Positions 3,662-36,907 are shown, counted from the first letter of the stretch. The stretch is 64,000 nucleotides of DNA from an uncultured Bacilli bacterium (GCA_934700895.1 CAKUXV010000001.1:60070-124069), one strand, 5' to 3'. Program-made: numbers and translations. Notes: a model not told the origin generated them from the letters alone.

Positions 3662-3892
3662 ATGCAAGATTTGAAGAGTTTCTAAACACGGAGTTGAAAT
3701 CGATATCCGCATCCCCTATTTTTTTGCGTAAATACATTGACTGTAACTGGAACGCAGGTTGCTTAAAGGTGTTGCGCAAACATAAAACCCGAGCACTTGA
3801 AAGACTTTTGCCTTTTTAAAAAGCCCGTTTCCACGCTTGCTTGCTTTTTCCATATATATCCTAAAAGTAATCAAACCATGGAGAGATGCCGT

Positions 3893-5544: not shown

Positions 5545-5608
5545 GATGAAAATAGGAAGAAACGATTAGAAGAATTCCATGTACAATCAAGCTAACAGAG
5601 GATTTTGC

Positions 5609-7225: not shown

Positions 7226-7237
7226 AAAAGGTGGTTT

Positions 7238-10392: not shown

Positions 10393-10437
10393 TGTCCTCC
10401 TATCGAAAAGCCACAAGGAATCCCTGTGGCTTCTATT

Positions 10438-12753
10438 CTACTTGTTTTCTTCCGCTTTTTTCTTTTCGGCTTCTTCGTCCAAGGTGTCTAGGCTTAGGTG
10501 CAGGACGCGGTCTTGGATTTCCTGCGTGCGGCCTTGATTCCAGAACTGGGTGCCGATATATCCGCAGGTTCTACGGGCGACGTGCATCTTGCTTTGGTCG
10601 CGGTTGCCACAATTGGGGCATTCCCAAACAAGTTTTCCGGTTTCGTCTTTGACGATTTTGATTTCGCCGGTATAGCCGCAATTCTCACAAAGGTCGCTCT
10701 TGGTGTTGAGCTCCGCGTAGACGATCGTGTTGTAGATATGTTTCATGATTGCAAGAACCGCAGGGATGTTATTCTGCATGTTCGGAACTTCAACATAGCT
10801 CACGGCTCCGCCCGGAGAAAGCTGTTGGAACTGAGCTTCCTTGGTCAATTTATCGAAGGCGTTGATCTTTTCACGGACATTGACGTGATAAGAATTGGTG
10901 ATGTAGTTATGGTCGGTGACCCCGGGGATGATGCCGAAACGCTTCTGGAGGCACTTGGCGAATTTGTAGGTTGTGGATTCCAAAGGAGTACCATAGACGG
11001 AGTAGTCGATGTTTTCCTCTCTCTTCCATTTAGCGCAGGAATCATTGAGAAGTTTCATGACGCGAATGCCGAATTCTTCGCCTTCTCCAGAAGTGTGGGA
11101 AATGCCTTTCATGTAATAGACGCATTCGGCGAGTCCGGCATAGCCCAAAGAAATCGTGGAATAGCCATTGAAGAGAAGCTTATCAATGGTTTCTCCTGGC
11201 TTTAAGCGGGCCAAAGCCCCATCTTGCCAAAGAATCGGAGCTACGTCACTGGGGGTGCCGAGCAAACGTTTGTGCCGAAGTTGCAAAGCACGGTGGCAGA
11301 GTTCCAGACGATCGTGGAAGATCTCCCAGAATCGTTCTTCGTCTTTGCCGCTAGAGCAAGCGACATCAACGAGGTTAATGGTGACAACGCCCTGATTGAA
11401 ACGGCCATAGTAGCGGTGCTTGCCGGGAACGTAATCCAAAGCATTTGCAATGTTGCCAATGCCCGCATCGGTGAAGCGGTCCGGAGTTAAGAAGGAACGG
11501 CAGCCCATGCAGGGATAGCAATCGCCCTTCAATTCGAACATCTTCTTTTCGGAGATGTAGTCGGGGACCATACGCTTGGCCGTGCATTCCGCGGCCAATT
11601 TTGTCAAATAAAAATAGGGAGTGCCTTCATCGATGTTATCGTCCTGGAGGACGTAGATGAGCTTAGGGAAAGCCGGGGTGATATATTGCCCAGTGCGGTC
11701 TTTAACTCCAAGGATACGTTGCTTGAGCATGACTTCGATAATGAGAGCGAGGTCATCCCGAGTGCGGCCTTCCGGGACTTCGTGGAGATAGAGGAAAACG
11801 GTCACGAAAGGAGCTTGGCCGTTGGTGGATTGCAAGGTGATCAGCTGATATTGGATGGTTTGGCAGCCCGTTTCGATTTCCTTGCGGACTTCTTGTTCCA
11901 CCAAGTGATTGAATTTATCGCTGGAGGTTTCGATGCCGGCGGCTTCGAATTCCGCTTTCAAACGTTTGGCGATTCTCTTGCGCGAAACGTCGACAAACGG
12001 AGCCAAGTGGCTCATGGTGATGGTTTGTCCACCATATTGGCTCGAAGCGACCTGAGCTACGATTTGGCTGGCGACGGTGCAAGCGACGGAGAAGCTATGC
12101 GGGGTATCGATATGAGTGCCCGAAATGCAGGTTCCATTTTGAAGCATGTCGTCGAGATTGACGAGGTCACAGTTGTGCTCGTGCTGGGCAAAATAGTCGG
12201 CGTCGTGGAAGTGGATGATGCCTTCGCGGTGAGCTTGAACGATGTCGTCGCTAAGCAAATAACGGCCTGTATAATAACGGCTCCATTCTCCAGCCATGTA
12301 GTCGCGTTGAACGGAAAGAATCGTCGGATTCTTGTTGGAGTTTTCTTGTTTGACCTCTTCGTTAGAACGTTCGACAACGCCAGCGATTTTTTGGTCGATG
12401 TCGCTCATTTTTCGGTTCTCGCCGTGCTTATATCGATAGGTGATGTAAAGACGGGCAACCTTATATTTGCCGGTGCCCATCAAGGCATCCTCGACTTTGT
12501 CTTGAATTTCTTCTACGGACAAATCGCGCCCCGCATTCGCGGCATCCTTCATGATGCCATAGGCGATTCCATTGATTTGCTCTTCGGTTAGACGTTCGGA
12601 AACGATGCCTTCTTCTTCGTTAGCACCGCGGATAGCTTCCACGATTTTCATGCGATCAAAACCCATGCGTTCGCCCGAACGCTTCATGACGCAGATTTTT
12701 GGTTCCTCAATATCTAAGTTCCCATCGAGACTTTCGTCGTAAATAGCTGTCAT
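10438..12753 (-). CDS. nrdD: Anaerobic ribonucleoside-triphosphate reductase (class III RNR)
   Basis: N-terminal ATP-cone (KRSGERMGFDRMKIVEAI). The C-terminus has the glycyl-radical motif RTCGYIG and the zinc ribbon CENCGY...CPNCGN. Start chosen at MTAIYDES, which has a GAGGAG RBS. Confidence 0.9.
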   Translation of the reverse strand: MTAIYDESLDGNLDIEEPKICVMKRSGERMGFDRMKIVEAIRGANEEEGIVSERLTEEQINGIAYGIMKDAANAGRDLSVEEIQDKVEDALMGTGKYKVARLYITYRYKHGENRKMSDIDQKIAGVVERSNEEVKQENSNKNPTILSVQRDYMAGEWSRYYTGRYLLSDDIVQAHREGIIHFHDADYFAQHEHNCDLVNLDDMLQNGTCISGTHIDTPHSFSVACTVASQIVAQVASSQYGGQTITMSHLAPFVDVSRKRIAKRLKAEFEAAGIETSSDKFNHLVEQEVRKEIETGCQTIQYQLITLQSTNGQAPFVTVFLYLHEVPEGRTRDDLALIIEVMLKQRILGVKDRTGQYITPAFPKLIYVLQDDNIDEGTPYFYLTKLAAECTAKRMVPDYISEKKMFELKGDCYPCMGCRSFLTPDRFTDAGIGNIANALDYVPGKHRYYGRFNQGVVTINLVDVACSSGKDEERFWEIFHDRLELCHRALQLRHKRLLGTPSDVAPILWQDGALARLKPGETIDKLLFNGYSTISLGYAGLAECVYYMKGISHTSGEGEEFGIRVMKLLNDSCAKWKREENIDYSVYGTPLESTTYKFAKCLQKRFGIIPGVTDHNYITNSYHVNVREKINAFDKLTKEAQFQQLSPGGAVSYVEVPNMQNNIPAVLAIMKHIYNTIVYAELNTKSDLCENCGYTGEIKIVKDETGKLVWECPNCGNRDQSKMHVARRTCGYIGTQFWNQGRTQEIQDRVLHLSLDTLDEEAEKKKAEENK

Positions 12754-12996
12754 AACGATACTCCTCAAGACGCTAGAGAAAGACAAGCGTCCTTCTCTTT
12801 CATTGCTGACGAGTCCTCATTTTAGGCGCGCAAGAGAATGTTGCAACAAGAGAGGACCAAAGTTTTGACAACGTCCTATAAAGAGGTCAAAAAGCCCGAA
12901 AAATTGGGAAAGGAGCTTTGGGTTATTTTGCTTGATTTCTTCTTTCTTCCATGTATCTTGCTAGAGTCGATATTGAAACGCTCGACATTGCTATTT

Positions 12997-13683
12997 ATGA
13001 AAACCAAGACGCCATGCCAACAATGCCCTTCTCCATGCGTATCTGCATGGCTTTTTGAGGAAGACCAAAAGCAAGGGAAAAAGGATTCGCTTTTTGCTTC
13101 GGCTATTCGGTCGACGTATCAAAAAGGCGATGCGATTTTTTCTCTTGGCGATCCTGCAGACTCCCTTTATTTGATCCATAAAGGGAATATCAAACTCGTG
13201 AATTACGATTCGGATGGTAGGGAAAAGATTGTCGCGTTTTTTGGCAAGGGTGAATGGATTTGGGAGGGATTATTCCTCGAACAGCCCACATTCCCCTTTC
13301 ATGGTGTTGCCATGGATGAAGTGGTGGTTTGCAAAGTCCCAGCTTCCATTGTTCGGAATCATCTAAAAGACGGGCGTGGCGCCTTGTCCGTCATCGAGAT
13401 TCTTTCGAAAAAACTCCACGATGCGAATGAGCGGAATATGATTCTTTCTACGACGGACCCCAAAGCCAAGATTGCTCGACTATTTGCTTATCGCGCTTCC
13501 CAATTTCATAGTGATTCCTTTTCGATGAAATTAAGTGACATCGCTTCGGCGGTATCCCTTCGCCCCGAGACCGTATCCCGAAAAATCGGCGAATTGCTTC
13601 AAGAAGGTGTTCTTGAAAAGAAGAGCCGTTCCCATTTCCGGATTTGCGATTTCGATGCGTTGGTGGAAATCGCCAATTCTTGA
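12997..13683 (+). CDS. fnr: Crp/Fnr-family transcriptional regulator, FNR-like (putative O2-sensing Fe-S regulator)
   Basis: The cNMP-binding-like beta-roll (DSLYLIHKGNIKLVNYDSDGREKIVAFFGKGEWIWEG) is present. N-terminal Cys-x2-Cys-x3-Cys plus a fourth Cys about 98 residues later mirrors the E. coli FNR cluster spacing. The C-terminal HTH has the recognition helix ETVSR (E..SR, FNR-type specificity). Start chosen at MKTKTPCQQC. Confidence 0.75.
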   Translation: MKTKTPCQQCPSPCVSAWLFEEDQKQGKKDSLFASAIRSTYQKGDAIFSLGDPADSLYLIHKGNIKLVNYDSDGREKIVAFFGKGEWIWEGLFLEQPTFPFHGVAMDEVVVCKVPASIVRNHLKDGRGALSVIEILSKKLHDANERNMILSTTDPKAKIARLFAYRASQFHSDSFSMKLSDIASAVSLRPETVSRKIGELLQEGVLEKKSRSHFRICDFDALVEIANS

Positions 13684-13693: not shown

Positions 13694-13743
13694 GGAATTT
13701 TTGATATTTTGGAAAGATAATAAGCACGTTGAAAGGATTTTTG

Positions 13744-14484
13744 ATGCAAGGAAACATTCATTCGATCGAAACATTTGGATCCCTGGATGGTCCAGGAATC
13801 CGTTTTGTTATCTTTTTGAAGGGCTGCCCCTTGCGTTGCCTTTATTGTCATAACCCCGATACGTGGGCGACTCCCGGCGGGGAACTTCGCTCGGCGGATT
13901 CGATTCTGGAACAGGCATTACGTTACCAATCCTATTGGGGTGAAGAAGGCGGCATCACCGTCAGCGGGGGAGAACCCTTGCTTCAAATCGAATTCTTGAC
14001 GGAGTTATTTACGAAAGCCAAGAAAAAAAGGATATCCACCTGCATCGACACATCAGGATCGCCGTTTACAAGAGAAGAGCCATTCTTCTCCCGCTTTCAA
14101 AGCCTTATGAAGGTGACGGACTTGCTGCTTGTCGACATCAAGGAAATCAATGACAAAAAGCACCGTGTCCTGACGGGAAGAAGCAACGAAAATATTCTAG
14201 ATATGCTTCATTACTTGGATGAAATCCATAAACCTGTGTGGATTCGCCATGTCTTAGTGCCTGGATACACGGATTTCGACGAGGATTTGAAAGCAACGAG
14301 CCGCTTCATCGATAGTCTTCATAACGTAGAACGGGTTGAAGTGCTCCCCTTCCATAAAATGGGAGAATTCAAGTGGAAGGAACTTCATTTGGATTATTCG
14401 CTTGGGGAGGTAGAGCCCCCATCGAATGAACGAGTGAAAAACGCGGAAAACATTCTTAGAAAAAAACGAAGCGAAATTGATTGA
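13744..14484 (+). CDS. pflA: Pyruvate formate-lyase activating enzyme (radical SAM)
   Basis: [41 protein letters not shown] has the CxxxCxxC cluster and the typical PflA N-terminus. Confidence 0.9.
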
Positions 14485-14490
14485 AATCAA
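14477..14490. promoter_or_regulatory. FNR box TTGATTGAAATCAA upstream of pflB
   Basis: Second identical perfect TTGAT-N4-ATCAA palindrome, 55 nt upstream of the pflB ATG. Confidence 0.7.
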
Positions 14491-14545
14491 AGAATCGCTG
14501 CCTCTAAACTCTCAAAATATTGCACGTTCCCACAGGAGGGAAAAC

Positions 14546-16798
14546 ATGGAACAAAAATTACAATGGGAGGGCTTTGCCCCCGGACACTGGAATGAAGACG
14601 TCAATGTCCGTGACTTCATTCAACGCAATTATACGGAATATCAAGGAGACGCATCCTTTTTGGAGGGGCCAAGTAATGCGACCGAAACGCTTTGGAACAT
14701 GGTGCAGGATTTGCAGCATCAAGAACGTGCAAAAGGCGGAGTTTTGGACATGGAAACCGAGGTTGTTTCCTCTATTAATGCCTACGGCCCCGCTTATATT
14801 GGCGAAAAAACCAAAGAATTAGAGAAAGTAGTTGGCCTCCAAACCGACAAGCCATTAAAGCGCGCCTTTATGCCTTATGGTGGCATTAAGATGGCAGAAA
14901 AAGCCTGCCAAACCTATGGCTATACCCCCAATCCCGAACTCCACAAAATCTTCACGGATTATCACAAGACTCACAACCAGGCGGTCTTCGATGCTTATAC
15001 TCCGGAGATGAAATTGGTCCGTCACAACAAAATCTTAACGGGTCTTCCTGATGCCTATGGCCGCGGCAGAATCGTTGGCGATTATCGCCGCATCGCCCTT
15101 TACGGCATTGATTTCTTGCTGCAACAAAAAGAAGAAGACCTCGCCGAATGCGGAGACGGCACGATGACGGAGGACGTCATCCGCTTGCGCGAAGAAATCG
15201 CGGATCAGATGAAGGCCCTTCGTGAAATGAAACAAATGGCTGCCTCGTTTGGTTTTGATATTTCTCAACCGGCCAAAGACGCCAAAGAAGCGGTGCAATG
15301 GCTCTATTTTGGTTACCTCGCCGCTATCCGCACGCAAAATGGCGCGGCGATGTCGGTAGGTCGCATCTCCACGTTCCTTGATATTTATATCGAACGCGAT
15401 TTACGCAAGGGCCTCATTACCGAAGCGGAAGCCCAAGAGCTCATCGACCATTTGGTCATGAAGCTCCGCATGGTTAAATTTGCTCGCATCCCCTCCTACA
15501 ATCAACTTTTCTCTGGCGACCCCGTTTGGGCGACCCTCGAAGTTGGCGGCATGGGGCAAGATGGCCGCAGCTTAGTGACCAAAAGCGATTTCCGTTTCCT
15601 CCACACTTTGGAGAACATGGGACCTGCTCCGGAACCCAACCTCACGGTTTTGTATTCCAAACGCCTCCCTGCCGGATTTAAGTCCTATGCGGCGAATATC
15701 TCGGTGAAAACCAGTTCCATTCAATATGAAAACGATGATGTGATGCGCCCGGTTTGGGGAGATGATTATTCGATTTGCTGCTGCGTCTCCGCGACGGAAA
15801 CGGGCAAGGAAATGCAATTCTTCGGTGCACGCGCGAACTTGGCTAAATGCTTGTTATACGCGATCAATGGCGGCGTTGACGAAAAAACGCACGACCAAGT
15901 GGGTCCGCGTTATCGCCCGATTACTTCCGAATATTTGGATTACGAAGAAGTCATGGAGCGTTATGACGACATGATGGAATGGCTCGCGGGCATTTACGTC
16001 AATGTCTTGAACCTCATCCAATACATGCACGACCGTTATTATTACGAGGCGGCTGAAATGGCTCTCATCGATACGGATGTCCGTCGCACGTTTGCTACGG
16101 GTATCGCGGGTTTCTCCCATGTTGTCGATAGTCTTTCCGCGATTCGCTATGCCAAAGTGAAAACCATCCGCGACGAAACGGGCTTGGTGGTTGATTATGA
16201 AATTGAGGGCGACTTCCCTCGTTACGGCAATGACGATGACCGCGTGGACAATATTGCTGTATGGTTATTGAAGACCTTCATGAAGAAGATCAAAAAACAC
16301 CACACCTATCGCGATTCCGAACCCACGACTTCGATCCTGACGATCACTTCCAACGTCGTTTACGGCAAAGCCACGGGTTCGATGCCGGATGGCCGCAAAG
16401 CGGGAGAACCACTCTCCCCGGGCGCCAACCCCGCTTATGGAGCGGAGAAAAACGGCTTGCTTGCCTCCCTCAACTCGGTGGCAAAACTCCCCTATGAATA
16501 TGCTTTGGATGGTATTTCCAACACGCAGACGATTGCCCCGAATACCCTTGGAAAAACGGATGCGGAACGAGTGAAAAACCTCGTTTCTGTCCTCGATGGC
16601 TATTTTGATAAAGGCGCCCATCACCTTAACGTCAACGTCTTTGGGATCGATAAACTCAAAGACGCGATGGAACACCCGGAAAAACCGGAATATGCGAATT
16701 TCACAATCCGCGTCTCTGGCTATGCGGTCAAATTCATCGATTTGACGAAAGAACAACAGTTAGACGTTATCGCTCGCCATGCGCACGAATCGCTCTAA
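14546..16798 (+). CDS. pflB: Formate C-acetyltransferase (pyruvate formate-lyase)
   Basis: About 750 aa. The C-terminal glycyl-radical motif RVSGYAVKF is present and the active-site CC dyad sits in ...YSICCCVSA.... AGGAGGG RBS precedes the ATG at 14546. Confidence 0.9.
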
Positions 16799-22203: not shown

Positions 22204-23281
22204 AGATTTAAAAGACGGCGTAGAGGTCTTTGGACCCTATCTAGTTGCTGATTCTAAAAAGTGTGTGAGTTCTGCGGGCAAGCCTTATTTAACGGTGACC
22301 CTTCAAGATTGTTCTGGAACCATTGACGGCAAGAAATGGGATTATCAAGCGGAGGACGATAAGCTTTTTGAAAAAGGAAGCGTCGTCCAAATCCAAGGGA
22401 ATGTTCTTTTATACGCTTCCCATTTGCAGTTAAAAATCAAGACGGCGGAAGCTTTGGATCAAAAAGGCATCGACTGGTCCATCTTCGTTCCCAGCGCCCC
22501 CGTGGATCAGGATATTTTGCAAAAGAAGCTAGACGTATATTTGAATTCCTTCCACGACCCTGTCATCGGAGAGCTCGTGAAAGCGATGCTAAACCGTTAT
22601 ATGGACCATTACCTTCAATGGCCGGCCGCCGTGAGAAACCACCACAATTTTGCATCGGGATTGCTGTTCCATAGCTTAACCATGACGGATTTAGCTCTCA
22701 AAGTATGTGAGATTTATTCGTCTTTGAATCGCGACATCATGCTCGCGGGAACGCTGATTCACGATATCGGAAAAGTCATTGAATTGTCGGGTCCTAATGG
22801 CACCGTTTATACTTTGGAAGGCAAATTGCTTGGCCATATTTCGCTTGGCCATTCCGAGATGCGCGAAATTGCCAAGAATATGGGGTATTTTGAATTCGCC
22901 TCCCTTTCTAGCGCCGAGCAAGAGAAAGAAAGACAAAACAATTCGGAAATCTTCCACCGTTACGAAGTGGCGGTCACCTTAGAACACATTATTTTGTCTC
23001 ACCATGGCAAAATGGAATTCGGAAGCCCTGTTTTGCCCGTGACCCGCGAAGCGCTTGCCATCTCCATGATCGATGACATGGATGCGAAGATGCTTATTCT
23101 AGATACCGCGTATAACGGGACCGCGAAAGGGGAAAATACCCCGAAAGTCATGGCACTAGATGGGAGATATTTCTACCATCCCTTCTATTCGCGCGACGAT
23201 GCTCGCCCCTATGGAACGAGTGTTGAGGAAGAAGAAAAAGACCTCGCTGCGGACGAACCGAAGCAAGGCCAATTGTTCTAG
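22193..23281 (+). CDS. yhaM: 3'-5' exoribonuclease YhaM (OB-fold plus HD domain)
   Basis: The N-terminal OB fold (LIKDLKDGVEVFGPYLVADSKK...) is followed by an HD domain (HSLTMT...LIHDIGK...SHHGKMEFGSP). Confidence 0.8.
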   Translation: MLIKDLKDGVEVFGPYLVADSKKCVSSAGKPYLTVTLQDCSGTIDGKKWDYQAEDDKLFEKGSVVQIQGNVLLYASHLQLKIKTAEALDQKGIDWSIFVPSAPVDQDILQKKLDVYLNSFHDPVIGELVKAMLNRYMDHYLQWPAAVRNHHNFASGLLFHSLTMTDLALKVCEIYSSLNRDIMLAGTLIHDIGKVIELSGPNGTVYTLEGKLLGHISLGHSEMREIAKNMGYFEFASLSSAEQEKERQNNSEIFHRYEVAVTLEHIILSHHGKMEFGSPVLPVTREALAISMIDDMDAKMLILDTAYNGTAKGENTPKVMALDGRYFYHPFYSRDDARPYGTSVEEEEKDLAADEPKQGQLF

Positions 23282-23283
23282 AT

Positions 23284-23700
23284 TTAGCGAATCGCTTTCG
23301 AGATATCGCAGGCCAAGCGCGGCAAATCCATTCCGGAGGTGTCGTTCTCGGCCATTTTAATTTGGAATCCGCCCTCCCCGCGAATATACCGCGGAATGAC
23401 ATGAACGTGGAAATGGGGAACGCTTTGTCCGGCTGCTTCACCGCAATTGGTGAGGATATTCACGCCCTTGGCTCCCAATACAGCCATTTCGGCTTGACCA
23501 ATGCGCTGCGCCACGGCATAAACCTTCATCATCAAATCCTTGGGACAGGATAAGAAGGAATCATAATGCTTTTTCGGCATTACAAGCGTGTGGCCACGAG
23601 TGGCCTGAGAAATATCAAGAATCGCGAGGACGTCATCGTCTTCATAGACTTTGGCGGAGGGGATTTCCCCTTTGATGATTTTGCAGAATACGTCTTCCAT
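23284..23700 (-). CDS. hit: HIT-family (histidine triad) nucleotide hydrolase
   Basis: 138 aa with the HVHVIP histidine-triad motif. Confidence 0.85.
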   Translation of the reverse strand: MEDVFCKIIKGEIPSAKVYEDDDVLAILDISQATRGHTLVMPKKHYDSFLSCPKDLMMKVYAVAQRIGQAEMAVLGAKGVNILTNCGEAAGQSVPHFHVHVIPRYIRGEGGFQIKMAENDTSGMDLPRLACDISKAIR

Positions 23701-23715
23701 AATCGCTCCTTCTCC

Positions 23716-23752
23716 CTATAAAAATAAGGGACAATTGCTTGTCCCTTATTAT
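23716..23752 (-). terminator. Rho-independent terminator after the lipoprotein gene pair
   Basis: Minus-strand sense reads ATAAGGGACAAGCAATTGTCCCTTAT followed by TTTTAT. Confidence 0.6.
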
Positions 23753-23766
23753 AGCGTGTTTTTGGA

Positions 23767-25440
23767 TTAGTCGAAGAGGTCCGGGAACGTCTTTTCAAAA
23801 TAGGAATAGACGTCATCGTCGTGATAGGAGATCGACATTTTTTCCACGAAGTACTGACGAGCAGCCTTTTTGTAGGAATCGCCATCGCCAATGAGGTCCG
23901 CGATGTCCCAAATGATTTGGTTCATCGTTTCACCGGAGGTGCGCTTTTCATAGCTGGTGTCGCTGTTCTCTTTGCTTTGAAGCTTCGGAGACTTGACGGC
24001 TTCGTCCACACGGACGATGTACCAAGTTTTACCGGAGTCATCATACATCGCGTACGGATAGGCTTCGCCGGTTTGAATCGTTTCGGGGCGGAGGTAATAT
24101 TCGCCCTGAACGCGCCAAGTGAAGGTGTCTTTGATCGTTTCGGTGATATCTTTGTCCGCGTAAGCCGGGTTATCGACTTCGTTGGCCACCTGGGTCTTGA
24201 ACAAACGGGTCTTCATGGAAGAGGGGAGATCGCTCAAGCCGGAAGAGGTGTACCATCCTTCAGTGACTTTGCTGGAAGCAACGATATCGCGGGTCTTCAT
24301 TTCAAGACCAGTGACTTTGGTATAAGCTCCGGAATTGGTGAAGTCTGTGGTCGATCCGGTTTCCCAGCGAGAATCGCTGAGATCCTTGAAATCGAGGACG
24401 AGTTGGCCATAGGTCGTTTCGCGATAGGTGGCTTCGGTCGTGTAGAGCAAGTCGCCATCCGCGTTGGTGACGTTATAGGCAGCAACGGCGGTGAAGCCAG
24501 CTTCATTGTAGATGCTATTTAAGACCGTCGCGTAAGAGGTTTGCTCTTCGGCGGTGAAATAGCCGGAATAAAGACGATTCAAGAAGTGGAGGTCTTTGTA
24601 AACGCCGGCGAATTCGCCAAGGTCGCTATCCTTCTTTTCCAAGACGTTCTTGCAATAGGCGCGAACGAGGGAACGGGTGGAGGATTCATATTTGTCGAGG
24701 TTCGGCAAGGCGACGTATTGGACCTTACGGGCATAGGAACGTCCGAGGGCGCCATAGTTGTTGTCGATGAGGTATTGCTCGACTAAAGCCTTGCGATAAG
24801 CGTTCGGCAACAAGGAACGTTCAATATAATCCTTATAATAAGAGAAGAATTGATCGTTTTGGACGTGGAAGTAACCCATGACGTCCTTATAGGTCTTGGA
24901 GCCGTCGATGGCGCCGTCATTTTTGAAGGTGACTTCGCTATCGAGCTTATAAAGTTCGGCTTGTTGGGCTTTGACAAAGAGTTCTTCGTGGAAGCGTTGG
25001 TTCTTTTGATAAGAACTATTGCTGACCACGGACCAGAAGGACTTCATGATGGAAGTCACGATGGAATTGTGGAAATCCAAGGCTTTGGTCGTCGCGACTT
25101 CGTCACTGATACCTTCGCGGAAGAAGGCGGTCGGTTTGACGCCGTCGTTTAATTTCCAAGTTCCGGTGGCATCGCAGGTATAATCTGCAAAGAAATCGCC
25201 GAAATAGGATTTGGCATAGAGATAAAGAACGTTGTTGAGGATCTTTTCGCTATTGGTATCCCCGCTGACGACGACTTTGTCATAAATCTCAAGGAGTTTA
25301 TTTCCAAAGACGTCGGTATCTTTGAGGATGGTCTCGTTTTGGTCGGCCTTTCCGAGGCTCATTTCGACATCGCCGCAAGAAGCGAGGCCGAGGGTCATCG
25401 CAGCAAGGAAGGCTGCGGAGAAGATTTTGATTTTCTTCAT
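23767..25440 (-). CDS. Large lipoprotein of unknown function (557 aa)
   Basis: Signal peptide plus lipobox MKKIKIFSAAFLAAMTLGLASC. GGAGAAACGAAC RBS. No recognised domain. Acidic, Tyr/Lys-rich. Confidence 0.7.
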   Translation of the reverse strand: MKKIKIFSAAFLAAMTLGLASCGDVEMSLGKADQNETILKDTDVFGNKLLEIYDKVVVSGDTNSEKILNNVLYLYAKSYFGDFFADYTCDATGTWKLNDGVKPTAFFREGISDEVATTKALDFHNSIVTSIMKSFWSVVSNSSYQKNQRFHEELFVKAQQAELYKLDSEVTFKNDGAIDGSKTYKDVMGYFHVQNDQFFSYYKDYIERSLLPNAYRKALVEQYLIDNNYGALGRSYARKVQYVALPNLDKYESSTRSLVRAYCKNVLEKKDSDLGEFAGVYKDLHFLNRLYSGYFTAEEQTSYATVLNSIYNEAGFTAVAAYNVTNADGDLLYTTEATYRETTYGQLVLDFKDLSDSRWETGSTTDFTNSGAYTKVTGLEMKTRDIVASSKVTEGWYTSSGLSDLPSSMKTRLFKTQVANEVDNPAYADKDITETIKDTFTWRVQGEYYLRPETIQTGEAYPYAMYDDSGKTWYIVRVDEAVKSPKLQSKENSDTSYEKRTSGETMNQIIWDIADLIGDGDSYKKAARQYFVEKMSISYHDDDVYSYFEKTFPDLFD

Positions 25441-25452
25441 GTTCGTTTCTCC

Positions 25453-27570
25453 TTACTTCTTATAGCAGGCGCCCGGTTTTCCGGCGTGGGTGCCGCTGGT
25501 GACGATGCCCCAGATGTTCTTTCCATCACGGGCGTCGGCGGTGTTGTAGGTCAAGGCCGCGACTTCGGAGATAAGTTTTTGAGAACCGTCTTCGCGGGTT
25601 TCGCGGGAAGCATCTTCGCGAAGGAGGAATTCCGCGTATTTGGCCCAGGCTTCGTCGATGGACTTTTCTGCGTCTTCCGCGTTCTTCTTTCTTTGCTGCT
25701 TCGAATAGTTATAAACGGAATCCATGATCGTTTTGACCGTGGCGTTCTCCACATTGAATTTCGCATTGGTTTCTTTGACCAAATATTGGACTTCATAGGT
25801 GTCGAGGTCGCTAGAATAGGCGGCTTTGACTTTGCTCTTTAAGTCTTCGATGTTGGTCTTGTAGTTTTCCTTGGTGGTATCAAGGCCCATGGTGATGAGG
25901 GTCGTCTTGTCCATCTTGGTATCGCCAACCGTGTATTGCGGATAGCTCTTAGATTCAGCCGGGTTTTCGAAGGTGTAGTATTCGGAAAGCGAGGTGATGT
26001 CTTTGCTGGAACTCGTTTCGGTGGTTTCGACGTATTTGCCGTTGTCGAATCCAGCGTAAGCGATGAGCGGGCTGCGTTCCACGACGATGAAGTGGATGCC
26101 TTTGGTTCCGGAATCGCCTCGGACGGCTAGGATGATTTGTCCTTTTTCGTTAGTGAGGACGTTTTCGGCGTTGCCACTGGCGTCTTTCACGTCAAGGATG
26201 TCTTTGGTGTTATTTTGGAAACCAGGGAGTTTCGCGTAATCGTTATCCAACGTGCCTTTCCAAGCAGCGTCTTCCGCGGCCTTTTTGTAATAGCCTTCCA
26301 CTTCGGCGTATTTGGTGGCGGCAGCTTCTTCGCTGGCTTGGGTGAATCCCGCTTCGACGACATCGTTATAGGCGATGCGGTTCGGGGTGATCACGGCAAT
26401 GCGGTGCGAGTTGAAGTATTTGTTCCAAATGACGTTGCGCGGCATATAGGCCGAATCATTGTCATTGACTTGATATTGCTGCGACGGGAAGTTCTTGTTG
26501 ACTTGGTCGTTGGCCAAAGCAACGGCGGCACCGAAGGGAATCGTGCCGATTTCGCCTAAAACGCCGTTGGAGGCAGTGGCTTCGGAAAGAAGGGTTTCCT
26601 CACCTTTTTCGTTGCGGAATTTGGCGTCTTCGGAATACATGATGGCCGATTTGTTGGCATCTGCATCTTTATGCGTGCTCTTGTTGAAGAAGAGGTCGTA
26701 GGCATAAACGCCGTATTGGAATCCTTGAACGAAGGAAGTAGAAGTATCCATGATGCCGAGGTTCCCGTATTTTTCAGCGGATCCGGTATCTTTGGAATAG
26801 GTTTTGGCCAATTCGCCAAAGGTCATGCGTCCGTCGGCGACGGATTTCTTGCCGTTATCGCTATCGACGGTGCTGGCGCCCGCCATCATCAAGATGACAT
26901 CGCCAAAGGTTTTGGCTTCGGTTTCGCTGACCGAGGTGCTCGTGGCATCGGATTCGCTCGCGCTAGAAGCTTCGAGCAAAATGTGCGAAACGTTGTACGG
27001 CATGCGGGTCTTTAAATAACCTTCCGACCCTTTGCCAAAGTTTTCGTCTTCGGGGAAGAAGCTGTTGCCGTTGGAATCCTTGCCATCGCGCATCTTCACC
27101 AAGTTGGCGTCGCTTTGATAGTCGGTGTTGAATTTGTCGGATTCGACTTCGTAGAGTTTCTTTTGATAAAGCTCTTCGACATTGTCAACATCTTCGCCGT
27201 CCAACAAAGCTTCCAACTCAGTCGCATAAGACGTGCCATTGTTTTTGGCATTGGTCTCCGCTTGGTTCTTGATACCGTCAACTTTGGTTTGAGCCGAGGA
27301 CTTCAAAAGACTGAGGTCGCCGGCGCGGCTCGGATCCTGGTAGTACTTACGGATTAGAATTTCTTTGATTTTGTCAAAATCGCTGCTTGCGGTGCTGCTG
27401 CTGGCTTGATAGTCCTCAAACAATTCTTTGGTTGTATAGTTCGTGACTTTGCCGTTCGCATCGGTGAAGCTAATCGCGACACCCTCTTTGTAGCTGGTCT
27501 CATTGCAACCCACCAAAGTGGCAAGGGCCGTGAGGCTAACTAAACATGTGAGGAGTTTGGTTTTCTTCAT
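25453..27570 (-). CDS. Large lipoprotein of unknown function (about 706 aa), possibly with a divergent parvulin-like segment
   Basis: Start at MKKTKLLTCLVSLTALATLVGC (lipobox) with a GGAGGA RBS. It is 12 nt upstream of the next lipoprotein gene, which suggests an operon. Weak PpiC-like motifs (NVSHILL ... GIHFIVVERS) are present but are separated by a very long insert. Confidence 0.65.
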   Translation of the reverse strand: MKKTKLLTCLVSLTALATLVGCNETSYKEGVAISFTDANGKVTNYTTKELFEDYQASSSTASSDFDKIKEILIRKYYQDPSRAGDLSLLKSSAQTKVDGIKNQAETNAKNNGTSYATELEALLDGEDVDNVEELYQKKLYEVESDKFNTDYQSDANLVKMRDGKDSNGNSFFPEDENFGKGSEGYLKTRMPYNVSHILLEASSASESDATSTSVSETEAKTFGDVILMMAGASTVDSDNGKKSVADGRMTFGELAKTYSKDTGSAEKYGNLGIMDTSTSFVQGFQYGVYAYDLFFNKSTHKDADANKSAIMYSEDAKFRNEKGEETLLSEATASNGVLGEIGTIPFGAAVALANDQVNKNFPSQQYQVNDNDSAYMPRNVIWNKYFNSHRIAVITPNRIAYNDVVEAGFTQASEEAAATKYAEVEGYYKKAAEDAAWKGTLDNDYAKLPGFQNNTKDILDVKDASGNAENVLTNEKGQIILAVRGDSGTKGIHFIVVERSPLIAYAGFDNGKYVETTETSSSKDITSLSEYYTFENPAESKSYPQYTVGDTKMDKTTLITMGLDTTKENYKTNIEDLKSKVKAAYSSDLDTYEVQYLVKETNAKFNVENATVKTIMDSVYNYSKQQRKKNAEDAEKSIDEAWAKYAEFLLREDASRETREDGSQKLISEVAALTYNTADARDGKNIWGIVTSGTHAGKPGACYKK

Positions 27571-27613
27571 GTGGAATCGTTCCTCCTTCGTCTGAACGTA
27601 GCCTTTGAAGTTT

Positions 27614-27629
27614 ATACTCTTAAGAGTAT
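27614..27629. promoter_or_regulatory. Perfect 16-bp palindrome ATACTCTTAAGAGTAT in the promoter region of the lipoprotein operon
   Basis: Exact inverted repeat about 45 nt upstream of the lipoprotein ATG; a candidate operator. Confidence 0.4.
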
Positions 27630-28113
27630 CAAGGCAATAAAAATAATTCGGGATGATGAGCGATTGTTCATTAAGGGATGAAAAGAAGAAATCGAACGAT
27701 TTTCCTTTCGAGTTCAACCAGCCAAATTTTGCTGGATTGTGCTAAAAAACACATCCTTACTCAAAGTTTAATTTTAATGTATAAGAAAACGACAAATGTA
27801 AACGGAATGAAAACGACAAATTCTACCTTATATTCTTAATTAGTTAAGAAAGATTTGAAAAATTACGCGGATTATTATTTAAAAATGCTGAACATGAATG
27901 TACAGCAAAAAATAATTATATTTTGATGATTTAAAAATTATATTTTGACTTTGGTTTCGCTAGGGAAGGCGGATTTGATTTGCTGTCTCCAGAGCACGGA
28001 TAAATCTGTTTCTTGAGCGAAAGCGAACATTATTTGCGTTTGACGTTATCGTTTCGTTTGATAGGCTATGCCTAGATGCATAAAATAGACAGGCTCTTTC
28101 GGAGGCGCTTTTT

Positions 28114-28935
28114 ATGTCCACACTAAAAATTGAAAATTTACATGTATCGGTCCAAGACCACGAAATATTGAAAGGGGTAGACCTCGAATTGAATGAAGGC
28201 GAAACCTTGGCCCTCCTTGGCCCCAATGGTCACGGCAAGAGCACGTTGCTCGCCGCGATCATGGGAAACCCCAATTACGCTGTGACGGAGGGGTCCATTA
28301 CCTTGGACGGGCAAGATGTCTTAGCCATGAGCGTTGACCAACGCTCGAAATCCGGCATCTTCCTTGCCTTCCAATATCCCAGCGAAATCCCTGGGGTGAA
28401 TAGCGCTGATTTTTTGAAGGCTGCCATGAATGCTCGCCGTCAAAAACCGATGTCGCTTTTTGAATATTATTCCAAACTCCAAAAGGCTTATAAGGAAACG
28501 GGCATCCCGTTTGAGATGAGCAACCGCAACCTAAACGAAGGCTTTAGCGGCGGAGAAAAAAAGCGCAACGAAATTCTCCAAATGAAGTTGCTTGATCCGA
28601 AATTTGCCTTGCTAGATGAAATCGATTCGGGCCTTGATGTGGACGCCATCAATATCGTTGCCAAATCCATCGAAGAAGAGCAGGCCAAAGGACGTGGATT
28701 TCTTGTTATCTCCCACTATGCCCGTTTATACGATTTGATTCACCCTACTCGCGTGGCCATCATGATCAACGGTCGTATCCGCGTTAATGGCGATCCTTCT
28801 CTCATCGAACGCATTGACCGTGAGGGATATGAATGGATTAAACGGGAACTCGGCATTGAAATCGAAAAGGAAAACCCGGGCATGAACAACGTTTCCATTG
28901 GCGTCTGTGCCGCGAAAGAGAAAGCGGGTATCTGA
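28114..28935 (+). CDS. sufC: Fe-S cluster assembly ATPase SufC
   Basis: Walker A (LLGPNGHGKST), ABC signature (FSGGEKKRNEI) and Walker B are present. First gene of the suf cluster. Confidence 0.9.
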   Translation: MSTLKIENLHVSVQDHEILKGVDLELNEGETLALLGPNGHGKSTLLAAIMGNPNYAVTEGSITLDGQDVLAMSVDQRSKSGIFLAFQYPSEIPGVNSADFLKAAMNARRQKPMSLFEYYSKLQKAYKETGIPFEMSNRNLNEGFSGGEKKRNEILQMKLLDPKFALLDEIDSGLDVDAINIVAKSIEEEQAKGRGFLVISHYARLYDLIHPTRVAIMINGRIRVNGDPSLIERIDREGYEWIKRELGIEIEKENPGMNNVSIGVCAAKEKAGI

Positions 28936-32696: not shown

Positions 32697-34574
32697 ATGG
32701 AAACTGATTTTGACGTCATCGTGGTCGGGGGCGGGCACGCGGGAATCGAAGCAAGCCACGCTTCTGCGATGCTTGGCCTGAAGACCTTGCTTCTCACCTT
32801 GAACCGCAAGATGATCGGCAACATGCCTTGCAACCCGCATATCGGGGGAAGCGCGAAGGGGATTGTCGTCCGTGAAATCGATGCGCTCGGTGGTCTTATG
32901 GCTCTTGCTGCGGACCATCGTCCTTTGCAGATGAAAATGCTTAATACCGGCAAAGGCCCCGGCGTACAGTGTCTTCGTTCTCAACAAGATAAAGAAGGGT
33001 ATCCCGCTTTTATTCAATCTCTTTTGGACCAAACTCCGAATCTAACCATCCTAGAAGAAGAAGTGAAAGACCTCCTTCATGATGATAAACGCGTATACGG
33101 GGTCGTTCTTTCTTCCAAAAAGACCTTAAATGCAAAGGCCGTGATTTTAACTACTGGCACCTACATGAATGGTCGAATCATCTCGGGACGGGATGTTTTT
33201 GAAGGTGGCCCAGATGGGGAAAAGCCCTCGAAGGGGTTATCGGAATCTCTGCAAAAAATGGGGATTGAGCTTGTTCGTCTTAAAACGGGGACTCCTCCTC
33301 GTCTAAAAGCTTCGACCATTGATTTTTCGAAAGGTGAAATCCAAGAGGGCAGCCATGAAAAACTCGCTTTTTCCTATTCCACGAAGCACTTCATTCCCTT
33401 TGAGGAACAGCTCCCTTGTTATTTGATTTATGCGGGAAAACCAACGATTGATATCGTCAAAGAACATATGCAGGACAGCGCTGTTTTCAATGGCGTCATC
33501 CAAGGAATCGGGCCTCGTTATTGCCCGTCTTTTGAATCGAAAATCGATCGTTTCGCGGACAAGGAACGTCATCAATTGTTTCTTGAACCCGAATACGAAC
33601 ACGGCGAATCCATTTACCTCCAAGGTTTTTCTACCGGCATGCCCCACGAAATCCAAGAAGAGATGGTCCATTCTTTGCCGGGATTAGAACACGCTGAGAT
33701 CTTAAAATGGGCCTATCAAATTGAATACGATGCCGTGAAGAGCTTTGAATTCGACGAAACATTGAAAATTAAAAAATACGATGGCCTCTATATTGCAGGA
33801 CAAATCTGCGGAACCAGCGGTTATGAAGAAGCGGCAGGGCTTGGTTTAATGGCTGGTATCAACGCCGCAAGAGCGATCCGCGGCCAGGATAAATTCGTTT
33901 TGAAACGAAACGAAGCCTATATCGGGGTCATGATCGATGATTTGGTGACCAAAGGGACGGACGAGCCATATCGTTTGCTTTCCTCCCGTGCCGAATATCG
34001 TTTGTTGCTTCGTCACGATAACGCGGACCTGCGTCTATGCGAACATGGATATGAACTTGGTTTATTAAGCGAATCTCGTTACGAGGAATTTAAGCAAAAG
34101 TACGAACGAATCAACGAAGCGATCCATCTTTTGGAAACCTGCAATATTTCAGATCGCGATGGCTTAAATGCCTATTTTGCCGAAAAGGGATTCCCACCCA
34201 CCAAAGACGGCAAAAAGGGCATGGATATTTTGAAACGCCCTGGCTTTCAATATCGCCGAATTCGCACTTTGATGCCGGAATTAGAACCCTATGATTTTGA
34301 CGACGAATCCGTTTTGGCTTTAGAAACCAAAGCCAAATACGAAGGGTATATCGCCAAAGAAGAAAAAGCGGCGAAGAATTTTTCCAAAGAAGAGTCTATG
34401 ATATTACGCCCCGACTTGGATTACATCCACATGGATGGTTTGCGATTAGAAGCAAGGCAAAAGCTCGATAAATATCGTCCTGCCAATTTAGGGCAAGCAA
34501 GCCGCATCTCGGGAGTCAATCCCGCAGACATCACAATCCTCGCCCTTTATTTGAAGAAGGAGAAACGTCTATGA
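32697..34574 (+). CDS. mnmG: tRNA uridine-5-carboxymethylaminomethyl modification enzyme MnmG (GidA)
   Basis: FAD-binding N-terminus DVIVVGGGHAGIEAS; length 625 aa. Confidence 0.95.
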   Translation: METDFDVIVVGGGHAGIEASHASAMLGLKTLLLTLNRKMIGNMPCNPHIGGSAKGIVVREIDALGGLMALAADHRPLQMKMLNTGKGPGVQCLRSQQDKEGYPAFIQSLLDQTPNLTILEEEVKDLLHDDKRVYGVVLSSKKTLNAKAVILTTGTYMNGRIISGRDVFEGGPDGEKPSKGLSESLQKMGIELVRLKTGTPPRLKASTIDFSKGEIQEGSHEKLAFSYSTKHFIPFEEQLPCYLIYAGKPTIDIVKEHMQDSAVFNGVIQGIGPRYCPSFESKIDRFADKERHQLFLEPEYEHGESIYLQGFSTGMPHEIQEEMVHSLPGLEHAEILKWAYQIEYDAVKSFEFDETLKIKKYDGLYIAGQICGTSGYEEAAGLGLMAGINAARAIRGQDKFVLKRNEAYIGVMIDDLVTKGTDEPYRLLSSRAEYRLLLRHDNADLRLCEHGYELGLLSESRYEEFKQKYERINEAIHLLETCNISDRDGLNAYFAEKGFPPTKDGKKGMDILKRPGFQYRRIRTLMPELEPYDFDDESVLALETKAKYEGYIAKEEKAAKNFSKEESMILRPDLDYIHMDGLRLEARQKLDKYRPANLGQASRISGVNPADITILALYLKKEKRL

Positions 34575-35269
34575 CTTACGCTGAATTATTCGCATTCGCA
34601 TCCGAGCGTGGTTTGGAACTAAACCCAGACCTTGAAACGAAATTCCACCGCTATGCGGAATTGCTCGCGGAATGGAATGAAAAGATGAACCTCACTTCGA
34701 TTACGGAGGAAAGCGAAGTCATTGAAAAGCATTTCCTCGATTCCTTAACCCCTGCTTTCGCAACCTCGTTTGCAGGCAAATCCGTGGCGGACATGGGGTC
34801 GGGAGCAGGCTTTCCGGGCATGGTCTTCGCCCTTGTCTTCCCTTCTTGCCACGTAACCTTAATGGATGCGACCAAAAAGAAATTCCTCTTCCTGGAAGAA
34901 CTCAAAAAGGAATTGGGGCTCAACAATGTTCGTTTCTTTGTGGGTCGGGTAGAAGACGCGAAATCGTTACGGGAAAATTTTGATATCGTCACGGCTCGCG
35001 GATTCGCTGCTACGCGTATCCTCCTCGAAGTGGGCGCCCCATTAGTCAAAGTCAACGGAACCGTCATTGCCATGAAGGGCCCTCGTGGGGAAGAAGAACT
35101 TCGCGAAGCGCTTGGCACCGAACAGCGGCTTGCCCTTCATTTAAGGAAGAAAGAAGAGTTGATGATGCCAAGCGGAGAAAAACGCATCAATTATTTCTTC
35201 GAAAAAATCCATCCAACCAAACCCTGCTATCCCCGTAGCTGGGCGGATATCCAAAAAAAGCCTCTCTAA
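34571..35269 (+). CDS. rsmG: 16S rRNA (guanine527-N7)-methyltransferase RsmG (GidB)
   Basis: SAM-binding motif DMGSGAGFPG. The gene overlaps mnmG. Confidence 0.9.
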   Translation: MTYAELFAFASERGLELNPDLETKFHRYAELLAEWNEKMNLTSITEESEVIEKHFLDSLTPAFATSFAGKSVADMGSGAGFPGMVFALVFPSCHVTLMDATKKKFLFLEELKKELGLNNVRFFVGRVEDAKSLRENFDIVTARGFAATRILLEVGAPLVKVNGTVIAMKGPRGEEELREALGTEQRLALHLRKKEELMMPSGEKRINYFFEKIHPTKPCYPRSWADIQKKPL

Positions 35270-35304
35270 GAGAATTTGCCAAAAAGGAGTAAACTATCCT
35301 CGTC

Positions 35305-36078
35305 ATGCCTAAGATCATCGCCATCGCCAACCAGAAGGGCGGGGTGGGAAAAACCACCACAGCCATCAACCTTTCGAGCGCCTTGTCTCATTTTGGGCAG
35401 CGCGTCCTTTTGGTGGATATGGACCCCCAAGGCAACGCGGGACGCGGCCTTGGCATCGATATTACTTTGGCAAAGGAAACGATTTACGAAGCTTTGACCG
35501 GCCAGATGGAAATGGAAAGTTGCATTCAGAAAACTTCCTTTGAAGGATTAAGCGTGACTCCGTCGAATCTTCGTCTGGCCTCTTTGGAAGCTTCAATGTA
35601 TACCCATCCCCAAGAGAAGCCCTTTGATTTGCTTGCCCGTTGCCTCAAATCCGTCGAATCCCATTACGATTTCATGATTTTGGATTGCCCACCCTCTTTA
35701 GGTCTATTGAACCTCAATGCCTTAAGCGCCGCGGATTCGGTGTTAATCCCCGTTCAATGCGAATATTTTGCCATGGAGGCGGTCGCCGCGATCCTTTCTT
35801 CCATTTCCAACGTCCAAAATACGTTGAACCCCCGGTTAAAAATTGAGGGTTTCCTGCTTACGATGTATGACGCTAGAACCCAATTAGGGACGGAAATCCA
35901 ACAAGAGGTGAGACGGTTATTCAAAGAAAATACCTTTGCCACCTCCGTTCCGCGGAACCAAAGCATTTCGGAATCCCAAGCCCGTCAACAGCCCGTCACC
36001 GTTTTCCGCCCGACTTCCCAAGGGAGCTACGCCTATTTCTCCTTGGCTAAAGAGATTTTGGACCATGAAACGCGATAA
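35305..36078 (+). CDS. soj: Chromosome partitioning ATPase ParA/Soj
   Basis: Deviant Walker A KGGVGKTT near the N-terminus (IAIANQKGGVGKTTTAINL). Confidence 0.9.
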   Translation: MPKIIAIANQKGGVGKTTTAINLSSALSHFGQRVLLVDMDPQGNAGRGLGIDITLAKETIYEALTGQMEMESCIQKTSFEGLSVTPSNLRLASLEASMYTHPQEKPFDLLARCLKSVESHYDFMILDCPPSLGLLNLNALSAADSVLIPVQCEYFAMEAVAAILSSISNVQNTLNPRLKIEGFLLTMYDARTQLGTEIQQEVRRLFKENTFATSVPRNQSISESQARQQPVTVFRPTSQGSYAYFSLAKEILDHETR

Positions 36079-36907
36079 GCCCAAATTGCTATCGGATTCG
36101 CTTTCCTCTTTGATTGAGAAATTTTCCCAAAGCGATGTTATCGCCGAGATGGAAAAGGAATATCAAAGCGCGCCTGCTAAACTGATTTCCACTTTGCTTA
36201 TTGACGATACTTCTTTTATTCAAGAAGTCCCTCTTCCAGAAAAAACGATTCGTTATTTTGCCGAAGGATTGAAATCCAAAGGTTTTTATAACCCCCTTGT
36301 CGTCCGTAAAAAAGGAGAAGGGCGTTATGAAGTGATCCTAGGAAGAAAGCGTTTCTTTGGTGCCAAAGCGGCGGGAATTTTATCCCTTCCGTGCGCGATT
36401 GTGGATTGTGGGGACGAGGAGACGTTATTGATGCTTCTTGCCGACGCCCGCGATCAGCGCGAAACGAATATTCTCGAAATGGCTCTTCTTTGCCATGCGC
36501 TAAGCGAAAAATTTGGATATCGTCAGCAAACCCTCGCCAATTTGTCGCACCAAAGTCGCTGCCAAATCACCAATACGATGCGGTTGTTAAAACTTCCTGC
36601 TTCGGTACGCTACGATGTGGCGTTAGGAAGACTTAGCTATGGCCAAGCCCGCGCTTTGGTCTCCCTCCCTTCTTCGTTTATTGAAGAGGCGGCCGAGGCA
36701 ATTCAAGAGAATGGTTGGTCGGTTCGCAAGACCGAGGAATATTGCAAAAAACTGCAGGGAAAAAGCGATAAACCCCTACACGTCCCCTCTATTTCTTATA
36801 AAAAAGGCAATACGGTTAGTCTCACTTTCTCTTCCATGGAAGAGATGAAAACCTTCTTGAAGAAGGCAGGGATTCCCCTTCCAATTAAAACCCCTTCTAA
36901 GAATTGA
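36065..36907 (+). CDS. spo0J: Chromosome partitioning protein ParB/Spo0J
   Basis: ParB-box region (VVRKKGEGRYEVILGRKRFFGAKAAG) and an HTH. Start chosen at MKRDKPK, overlapping the soj end. Confidence 0.8.
   Translation: MKRDKPKLLSDSLSSLIEKFSQSDVIAEMEKEYQSAPAKLISTLLIDDTSFIQEVPLPEKTIRYFAEGLKSKGFYNPLVVRKKGEGRYEVILGRKRFFGAKAAGILSLPCAIVDCGDEETLLMLLADARDQRETNILEMALLCHALSEKFGYRQQTLANLSHQSRCQITNTMRLLKLPASVRYDVALGRLSYGQARALVSLPSSFIEEAAEAIQENGWSVRKTEEYCKKLQGKSDKPLHVPSISYKKGNTVSLTFSSMEEMKTFLKKAGIPLPIKTPSKN

Follow-up and report, generated by a model that had tools for sequence, protein, structure and literature searches.

A conserved operon for two enlarged PrsA-like lipoproteins, with a putative operator in its promoter, in uncultured gut Bacilli

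How proteins fold after export is poorly understood in Gram-positive and wall-reduced bacteria. In a stretch of 64,000 nucleotides from an uncultured Bacilli bacterium (GCA_934700895.1 CAKUXV010000001.1:60070-124069; the whole stretch is called the window here, and positions are counted from its first letter) two adjacent genes, A and B, encode very large lipoproteins and are preceded by a perfect 16-bp palindrome. A first-pass annotation, made from the sequence, described both proteins as lacking recognisable domains and proposed that they were adhesins, nutrient-binding proteins or foldases. What, then, are these proteins, and is the palindrome a regulatory site? The answer is less exotic than domain-less lipoproteins: the locus is a conserved, regulated operon of two enlarged PrsA-like extracytoplasmic chaperone lipoproteins. 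We give a probability of about 60% to the reading that this two-gene operon serves protein folding outside the cytoplasm, with A as the catalytic foldase, B as its non-catalytic partner and an operator carried in the promoter. The features of the locus are collected in Table 1.

Gene A begins with an ATG at 27570 and ends with a TAA stop codon at 25455-25453. After a gap of exactly 12 nt, the distance first described, gene B begins with an ATG at 25440. The length of 557 aa first given for B was correct, while A has 705 aa and not 706. The Shine-Dalgarno sequence of B overlaps the stop codon of A, which suggests that translation of the two genes is probably coupled. Both proteins have a signal peptide with a lipobox cysteine, as is expected of PrsA lipoproteins (LVGC22 in A, LASC22 in B, the signal peptide of B being MKKIKIFSAAFLAAMTLGLASC), and the proposed lipoboxes were borne out by the family alignments of A and of B, 42 sequences each, in which Cys22 is invariant. 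The mature proteins are acidic, with an isoelectric point of 4.79 each. The further description as rich in Lys, Tyr and Asp suits B, with 8% Tyr and 9% Asp, whereas in A the abundant residues are Ala, Lys, Ser, Glu, Thr and Asp, and not Tyr. Downstream of B lies a gene for a HIT-family protein, and the segment between them (folding energy -20.6 kcal/mol) contains a 22-nt GC-rich hairpin with a U-tract that looks like an intrinsic terminator.

Protein A turned out to be a remote homologue of PrsA and other parvulins. Against the Pfam Rotamase_3 family, A of the window scored 21.1 bits compared to a gathering cut-off of 22.5 (E 4.8e-4, aa 246-285 only), and 23 of the 42 orthologues matched the same family at E<=0.01, with a best E of 6.9e-7. 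Two database orthologues carry a precomputed match to PF13616, which together with PF00639 represents the parvulin-type PPIase domain in Pfam, and some are named peptidylprolyl isomerase by NCBI. When the profile of A was searched against the PDB, PrsA parvulin domains were found at E ~2-3e-4, and about 20 of the 25 matches at E<=10 were parvulins, PrsA or SurA. The NCBIfam models for PrsA and SurA matched A weakly. With the PrsA equivalog model NF002846 the score was 21.7 bits, compared to a cut-off of 361, and A is, as judged from its sequence, PrsA-like and not a PrsA equivalog. Homology to the PrsA family, which the first-pass annotation had named as evidence against its own proposal, was in this way partly found.

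The catalytic residues of parvulins, two histidines and an Asp or Cys in an S-x-D/C motif, are all recognisable in A within SHIL, SxDxGS and GIHFI. The first strand has the family sequence PYHVSHILVK, with His196 present in 42/42 sequences. The motif FGxIAxxxSxDxGSAxxYGDLGIMD contains Asp261, also present in 42/42, and is followed by a helix, SFVxEFKLGVYA. About 170 residues past that helix comes NVLTNEKGQIILAVR...YQGIHFIVV, with His493 in 41/42. The widely spaced SHILL...GIHFIVV pattern noticed at first sight corresponds to the two strands of the parvulin domain that carry the catalytic histidines. In the AlphaFold model of A (mean predicted local distance difference test score, pLDDT, 86; predicted template modelling score, pTM, 0.84) the domain forms a four-stranded antiparallel sheet packed by helices, and the N- and C-terminal segments around it build a SurA/trigger-factor-like helical module, as in PrsA. 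On these grounds A is probably an enlarged PrsA-type foldase lipoprotein which has retained its peptidyl-prolyl isomerase (PPIase) activity. It differs from the PrsA proteins of Bacillota (B. subtilis PrsA; PDB 9ibn, 6vj6, 5tvl, 1zk6) in being about 2.4 times larger (705 compared to ~290 aa), in having its parvulin domain split by an insertion of ~170 aa, with ~30 extra residues after strand 1, and in always being accompanied by a second PrsA-like gene.

That second gene, B, encodes a protein in which only the fold is familiar. Neither the family profile nor remote members gave a sequence match in Pfam, NCBIfam or the PDB, and Pfam Rotamase was matched by none of the 42 family members or 10 remote relatives. 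An exhaustive profile search yielded just 320 clusters at 50% identity, apparently a full-length family of its own. The AlphaFold model of B (pLDDT 83, pTM 0.79) matches the parvulin-chaperone folds of PpiD, SurA and PrsA, so that the statement that no domain can be recognised does not hold for B either. Structural alignments were obtained with PrsA (196 of ~270 residues), with LIC12922 and with Mpn444 of Mycoplasma pneumoniae (256-261 residues). A Foldseek search of the PDB with the full-length model gave nothing significant, with SurA, PpiD and PrsA ranking near the top. This agrees with the experience reported for the dome proteins of Mycoplasma, discussed below, for which only domain-wise structure searches succeeded (bioRxiv 10.1101/2025.04.25.650208).

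Across the parvulin-like region of B (aa 230-490), conservation of a histidine never exceeds 38% of the family members, and the catalytic residues of parvulins appear to be lacking; B is for this reason probably non-catalytic. As it has neither the sequence hallmarks of parvulins nor their catalytic histidines, it would most likely act as a holdase or scaffold. There is a parallel in PpiD, a membrane-anchored protein at the Sec translocon whose parvulin domain is inactive. B resembles E. coli PpiD (PDB 8zht, PpiD-YfgM complex), yet it is anchored by a lipid and not by a transmembrane helix, shares no sequence similarity with it, has no identified YfgM-like partner and comes from a Gram-positive-derived lineage.

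A and B were also compared as possible sequence paralogues, and this idea was abandoned: BLASTP found nothing, hhalign aligned only the signal peptide and the first ~50 mature residues, and hhalign of sub-domains found nothing. It is conceivable that the two proteins are functionally independent, A being an ordinary PrsA and B a parvulin-like scaffold for ligand or host binding or with a structural role at the surface, and that they are neighbours through operon history. The lack of similarity between them beyond the signal peptide region would fit such independence, as would the failure of B to match any sequence in Pfam, NCBIfam or the PDB or to give a significant Foldseek result. We regard functional independence as rather unlikely.

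The linkage of the two genes was followed in 86 related loci. Of these, 6 were obtained by looking up the exact proteins and 80 were taken from species genomes encoding relatives of A, of which 415 were found. B lies directly 3' of A in all loci with a long enough contig. Among the loci of sufficient length only L043 departs from the gene order sufC<- ->A-B-HIT, which holds down to ~32-33% identity to the proteins of the window. In L043, genes for an ABC transporter and a methyltransferase are found upstream in place of suf and the A-B promoter is retained, indicating that the promoter element belongs to the A-B operon. The B family, unannotated and obligatorily paired with A, is a new element of this locus. 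Within the 64-kb window no further paralogues of A or B were found.

The nearest named relatives of the organism are Candidatus Enteromonas and Alloenteromonas, the latter placed by NCBI in Bacillota incertae sedis, and the organism probably belongs to the order RF39 of GTDB. No paper on PrsA-like proteins of RF39 was found in the literature. Records of the same species bear the titles 'uncultured Mollicutes bacterium UMGS153' and 'Bacilli bacterium', in line with the Mollicutes-related affiliation first proposed. The wall-less state proposed along with it is not established for this organism, since most RF39 species are predicted to retain peptidoglycan (PMC10868615). Large acidic surface lipoproteins in a host-associated lineage with a reduced genome could in principle be adhesins or nutrient-binding proteins. 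Of the three roles that had been offered, the foldase is the one that the evidence bears out, adhesion and nutrient binding are without support, and we consider either of the latter extremely improbable. Among the related loci, L026, L045, L077, L080, L081 and L082 come from species-representative metagenome-assembled genomes whose records go under the names of Escherichia coli, Bacteroides uniformis, Alistipes communis, Faecalibacterium prausnitzii, Parasutterella or Paludibacteraceae; these bins are evidently mislabelled.

Upstream of A, an intergenic region of 543 bp (described at first as about 540 bp and AT-rich) is common to A and the divergent sufCDSUB operon; its GC content is 34%, compared to 46% for the window. 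The palindrome, ATACTCTTAAGAGTAT, is located 43 nt from the ATG of A, close to the 45 nt first estimated, and fills the spacer of the promoter TTGCCT-TGATACTCTTAAGAGTA-TAAACT, in which the 17 nt between the hexamers occupy 27615-27631. The palindrome is unique in the window even when 3 mismatches are allowed. Its perfection, which had drawn attention to it, is unremarkable: the window contains 3 perfect 8+8 palindromes compared to 1.5 expected from a first-order Markov model, and at least one occurred in 81% of the simulations. The palindrome owes its significance solely to its position and its conservation.

A promoter of the form TTGNNN-17-TANNNT was present in the window and in 69 related loci, at a distance of 35-46 nt from the ATG, giving 49 distinct promoters. 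With the dyad axis placed at spacer position 10/11, these have on average 5.4/8 complementary pairs, compared to ~2.2 for other axes. Four perfect palindromes, ATACTCTTAAGAGTAT, ATACTCATATGAGTAT, ATTCTCTTAAGAGAAT and ATTCTCTATAGAGAAT, occur in different lineages and are linked by symmetric double substitutions. With up to 2 mismatches, the motif was found in 809 kb of related DNA at the A promoter of ~45 loci and at 1 place elsewhere, which is probably due to chance. Over the final 79 nt in front of the ATG, the window and its nearest relative, L006, share 96% identity, compared to 77% for the proteins; the remaining intergenic sequence cannot be aligned between the two.

These data also bear on another account, namely that the palindrome is just a spacer, conserved as part of a strong housekeeping promoter, with an accidental or inherited symmetry to which no protein binds. 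The chance frequency of perfect palindromes given above would suit it, and so would the conservation of the right half (AAAG/AGAG + WA before the -10 hexamer) even where the left half is missing, for example in L054, and the failure to find a regulator or a second site in the window or in the 809 kb. What argues against it is the way in which the symmetry has been maintained. Among 28 distinct sequences, 92.4% of the symmetric cells are complementary compared to 39-61% in slid controls, a percentage that is inflated by the choice of the set through similarity to two palindromic motifs and counts to that extent against our reading, although the covariation at position 3/14 is not affected by this choice. 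At that position A:T was found in 9 and T:A in 19 of the 28 sequences, and a mismatch in none. Altogether 3/8 symmetric pairs have changed on both sides and stayed complementary, the covariation score was reached by 0/500 shuffles, and no mixed ATACTC...GAGAAT site was found, though the selection would have caught one. Moreover, other clades have different palindromes at the same promoter, in 7-4-7, 7-6-7 and 6-3-6 arrangements, such as ATTACTT-ATTA-AAGTAAT and GATATTC-N6-GAATATC. Compensatory changes and clade-specific palindromes cannot be explained by descent alone, and we consider a mere spacer improbable.

Another possibility would be that transcription begins further upstream and the palindrome forms a hairpin in the resulting longer RNA, or that it is the site of an activator. 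The unusual length of the intergenic region in the window, other promoter-like matches on the minus strand (27847-27820) and the weakness of the inferred -35 and -10 hexamers could be taken in its favour. In most orthologous loci, however, the total distance from sufC to A is only ~200-240 bp, and conservation is restricted to the last ~80 nt. The hairpin would have an AU-rich stem, a loop of 4 nt and no U-tract. As for an activator, the spacer of 17 nt is already optimal, so that remodelling of the MerR type is unnecessary, and a site that covers the spacer normally excludes RNA polymerase. Both variants appear very unlikely to us.

With a dyad that keeps its place in the core promoter and its symmetry through compensatory changes, the palindrome is on comparative sequence grounds most likely a repressor operator, which a dimeric DNA-binding protein would occupy in competition with RNA polymerase; the first-pass annotation had also called it an operator. 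In its location it is the same as known operators between the -35 and -10 hexamers of sigma-70 promoters, here with a 16-bp dyad of 6-4-6 geometry in a 17-nt spacer and with compensatory half-site changes. It is not known to match the operators CIRCE, CtsR, Fur/PerR/Zur 7-1-7, CodY, LexA, FNR/CRP, ARG box and PrfA box. This cleanly evolving orphan operator is the second new element of the locus. Regulated foldase genes have precedents in prsA of S. aureus, which is under VraR, and prsA2 of Listeria, which is under PrfA.

Several observations, in addition to the way the covariation set was chosen, weigh against the reading proposed here. A of the window remains below the Pfam gathering score, and every sequence match of A spans only ~45 residues. 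The promoter hexamers of the window are weak (8/12 matches) and were missed by a consensus scan. In some clades the best dyad lies 5.5 bp upstream, as TAACAA-N3-TTGTTA or TAAGAG-N3-CTCTTA overlapping the -35 hexamer, and no dyad is evident in the promoters of L054 and L055, which means that the site is not uniform across clades. No regulator gene linked to the locus and no second operator copy in the window (<=3 mismatches) were found, and neither a cognate protein nor regulon sites emerged from the related loci (809 kb) or the adjacent genes. The loci with a dyad shifted upstream are L021-L025, L033-L044 and L026-L037; their 7-1-7-like geometry recalls the boxes of the Fur family, and it seems that the operator moved or that a different regulator took over.

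According to the reading that we nevertheless prefer, A would be a lipid-anchored foldase of the PrsA type, built from a helical chaperone module and a parvulin PPIase domain (His196, Asp261, His493), and B a lipid-anchored holdase or scaffold combining a PpiD/SurA/PrsA-like chaperone part with a parvulin-like fold. On the outer side of the membrane the two would act jointly on proteins that leave the Sec translocon. Transcription would start from the sigma-70-type promoter TTGCCT-17-TAAACT, a dimeric repressor on the spacer palindrome would block RNA polymerase and thereby make foldase expression conditional, and the strong terminator after B would end the operon.

Table 1 Features of the A-B locus in the window (UTR, untranslated region)
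Feature	Position	Strand	Remarks
Intrinsic terminator after B (putative)	23718-23747	minus	AAGGGACAAGCAAUUGUCCCUU then AUUUUUAU; from sequence inspection
Gene B	23767-25440	minus	557-aa lipoprotein; PrsA/PpiD/SurA-like fold, without detectable sequence family or conserved catalytic His
Shine-Dalgarno sequence of B	25449-25454	minus	AAGGAG; overlaps stop codon of A
Gene A	25453-27570	minus	705-aa lipoprotein; probable enlarged PrsA-type parvulin foldase
Parvulin domain of A, last strands (aa 470-500)	26071-26163	minus	NVLTNEKGQIILAVR...GIHFIVV, His493
Insertion of ~170 aa in A (aa ~297-469)	26164-26682	minus	splits the parvulin domain; from AlphaFold model and family alignment
Parvulin domain of A, first part (aa 190-296)	26683-27003	minus	strand 1 PYNVSHILL (His196), motif FGELAKTYSKDTGSAEKYGNLGIMD (Asp261), helix SFVQGFQYGVYAY
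Signal peptide and lipobox of A	27505-27570	minus	MKKTKLLTCLVSLTALATLVGC; LVGC, lipid-modified Cys22
5' UTR of A	27571-27608	minus	conserved block GCTACGTTCAGACGAAGGAGGAACGA (27577-27602), Shine-Dalgarno sequence AAGGAGG (27582-27588)
-10 hexamer	27609-27614	minus	TAAACT, inferred; orthologues TAAACT, TAGACT, TATGAT, TATCAT at the same spacing
Palindrome, putative operator	27614-27629		ATACTCTTAAGAGTAT; 16 bp, perfect; fills the spacer, overlaps first T of -10
-35 hexamer of the A-B operon	27632-27637	minus	TTGCCT, inferred from related loci

The surroundings of the promoter have some further peculiarities. The conserved block in the 5' UTR (GCTACGTTCAGACGAAGGAGGAACGA) is kept across much of the order, exceeding the coding sequence in conservation. 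A hairpin around the Shine-Dalgarno sequence was considered and rejected, RNAalifold giving no consensus structure and the mean z-score of the minimum free energy being -0.1 over 49 UTRs. About 300 bp of additional AT-rich DNA, at about 27650-28050 of the window, is confined to the species of the window and L006; it contains no open reading frame and no Rfam match, and an Rfam scan of 23000-28500 matched nothing. Within the species, identity in the intergenic region is just 85.6%, compared to 97-98% for the flanking proteins. In many clades a second palindrome, CAAAGA-N5-TCTTTG, is found ~85 nt upstream of the sufC ATG (L004, near 3845-3865; L015, L026, L033), perhaps as an operator by which the Fe-S cluster operon is controlled separately. 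The clade of the window does not have this palindrome and has TTGATA-17-TAAAAT at 28058-28086 instead.

Candidate regulators were looked for among the neighbouring genes. In L003 an extra gene lies between the suf operon and A; it was excluded as a candidate, as it encodes a 159-aa double zinc-ribbon membrane protein, and so were the ABC transporter and methyltransferase genes upstream in L043. The distance from sufC to A is increased to a similar extent in L022, L024 and L068. The sole regulator in the Pfam-scanned part of the window is a gene of the Crp/Fnr family (12838-13683, plus strand), 14 kb away, between nrdD/nrdG (9853-12786, minus strand) and pflA/pflB (13729-16798, plus strand). 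It probably regulates these neighbours in response to oxygen or redox state, and it shows no link to the palindrome. The window also contains a gene for HtpG (Hsp90) and genes for GH20 and GH95 glycoside hydrolases (1632-3608, 5579-9856), families in keeping with foraging on host glycans in the gut. The suf operon is followed directly by mnmG (gidA), rsmG (gidB), parA and parB (32697-36907), a group which suggests that the origin of chromosome replication may be close to the window; the cumulative GC skew climbs across most of the window.

A foldase dome of giant PrsA-like lipoproteins associated with Sec was described recently, in Mycoplasma alone. The M. pneumoniae proteins Mdp436/444/489, which are distantly homologous to PrsA and have a split PPIase domain, form a dome on the Sec translocon. 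Among these paralogues only Mdp444 retains catalytic residues, and PPIase activity and binding of unfolded protein have been demonstrated in vitro for Mpn444 and Mpn436 (bioRxiv 10.1101/2025.04.25.650208, 10.1101/2024.09.05.611430). The Mdp444/Mdp436/Mdp489 proteins (MG307/MG309/MG338 family; PDB 9gn0, 9qgq), reported only in Mycoplasmoidaceae, have ~1300 aa with an internal SurA+PPIC duplication, whereas A and B are separate genes with apparently one unit each. In Mdp444 the first catalytic His is replaced by Arg, while A keeps the His. In size the Mdp proteins (136-146 kDa) compare with mature A and B taken together (~137 kDa). The PPIase domain consists of aa 279-352 and 471-504 in Mpn444 and of aa 245-296 and 470-500 in A, with the insertion in the same region of the parvulin fold, a similarity which is suggestive only.

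Membership of the Mdp family (IPR022186) was not found: there was no Pfam match to it at E<=1, and the Mpn444 chains were absent from PDB sequence searches at E<=10. A spliced, insertion-free parvulin domain of A gained no significance against the PDB (E 1.5e-4 and 1.9e-4) and again never retrieved Mpn444. By analogy, A and B could correspond, as unfused proteins, to the two PrsA-like halves of an Mdp protein, A to the catalytic and B to the degenerate one, and would then assemble into a hetero-oligomeric extracellular folding chamber at Sec. This is a speculative extension that we hold to be improbable.

The locus presents a different solution made from the same ingredients, i.e. an enlarged, apparently active PrsA-like lipoprotein together with an obligatorily linked degenerate partner, in a large lineage of uncultured gut Bacilli. 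The unannotated B family, with its 320 clusters, gains a testable function, and the orphan operator with its natural compensatory variants provides a handle for finding the regulator of foldase supply. If A and B were indeed unfused dome subunits, folding cages would be ancestral or widespread in Mollicutes-related lineages and not an invention of the Mycoplasmoidaceae, and a dedicated repressor sensing secretion or envelope stress would govern how strongly they are expressed.

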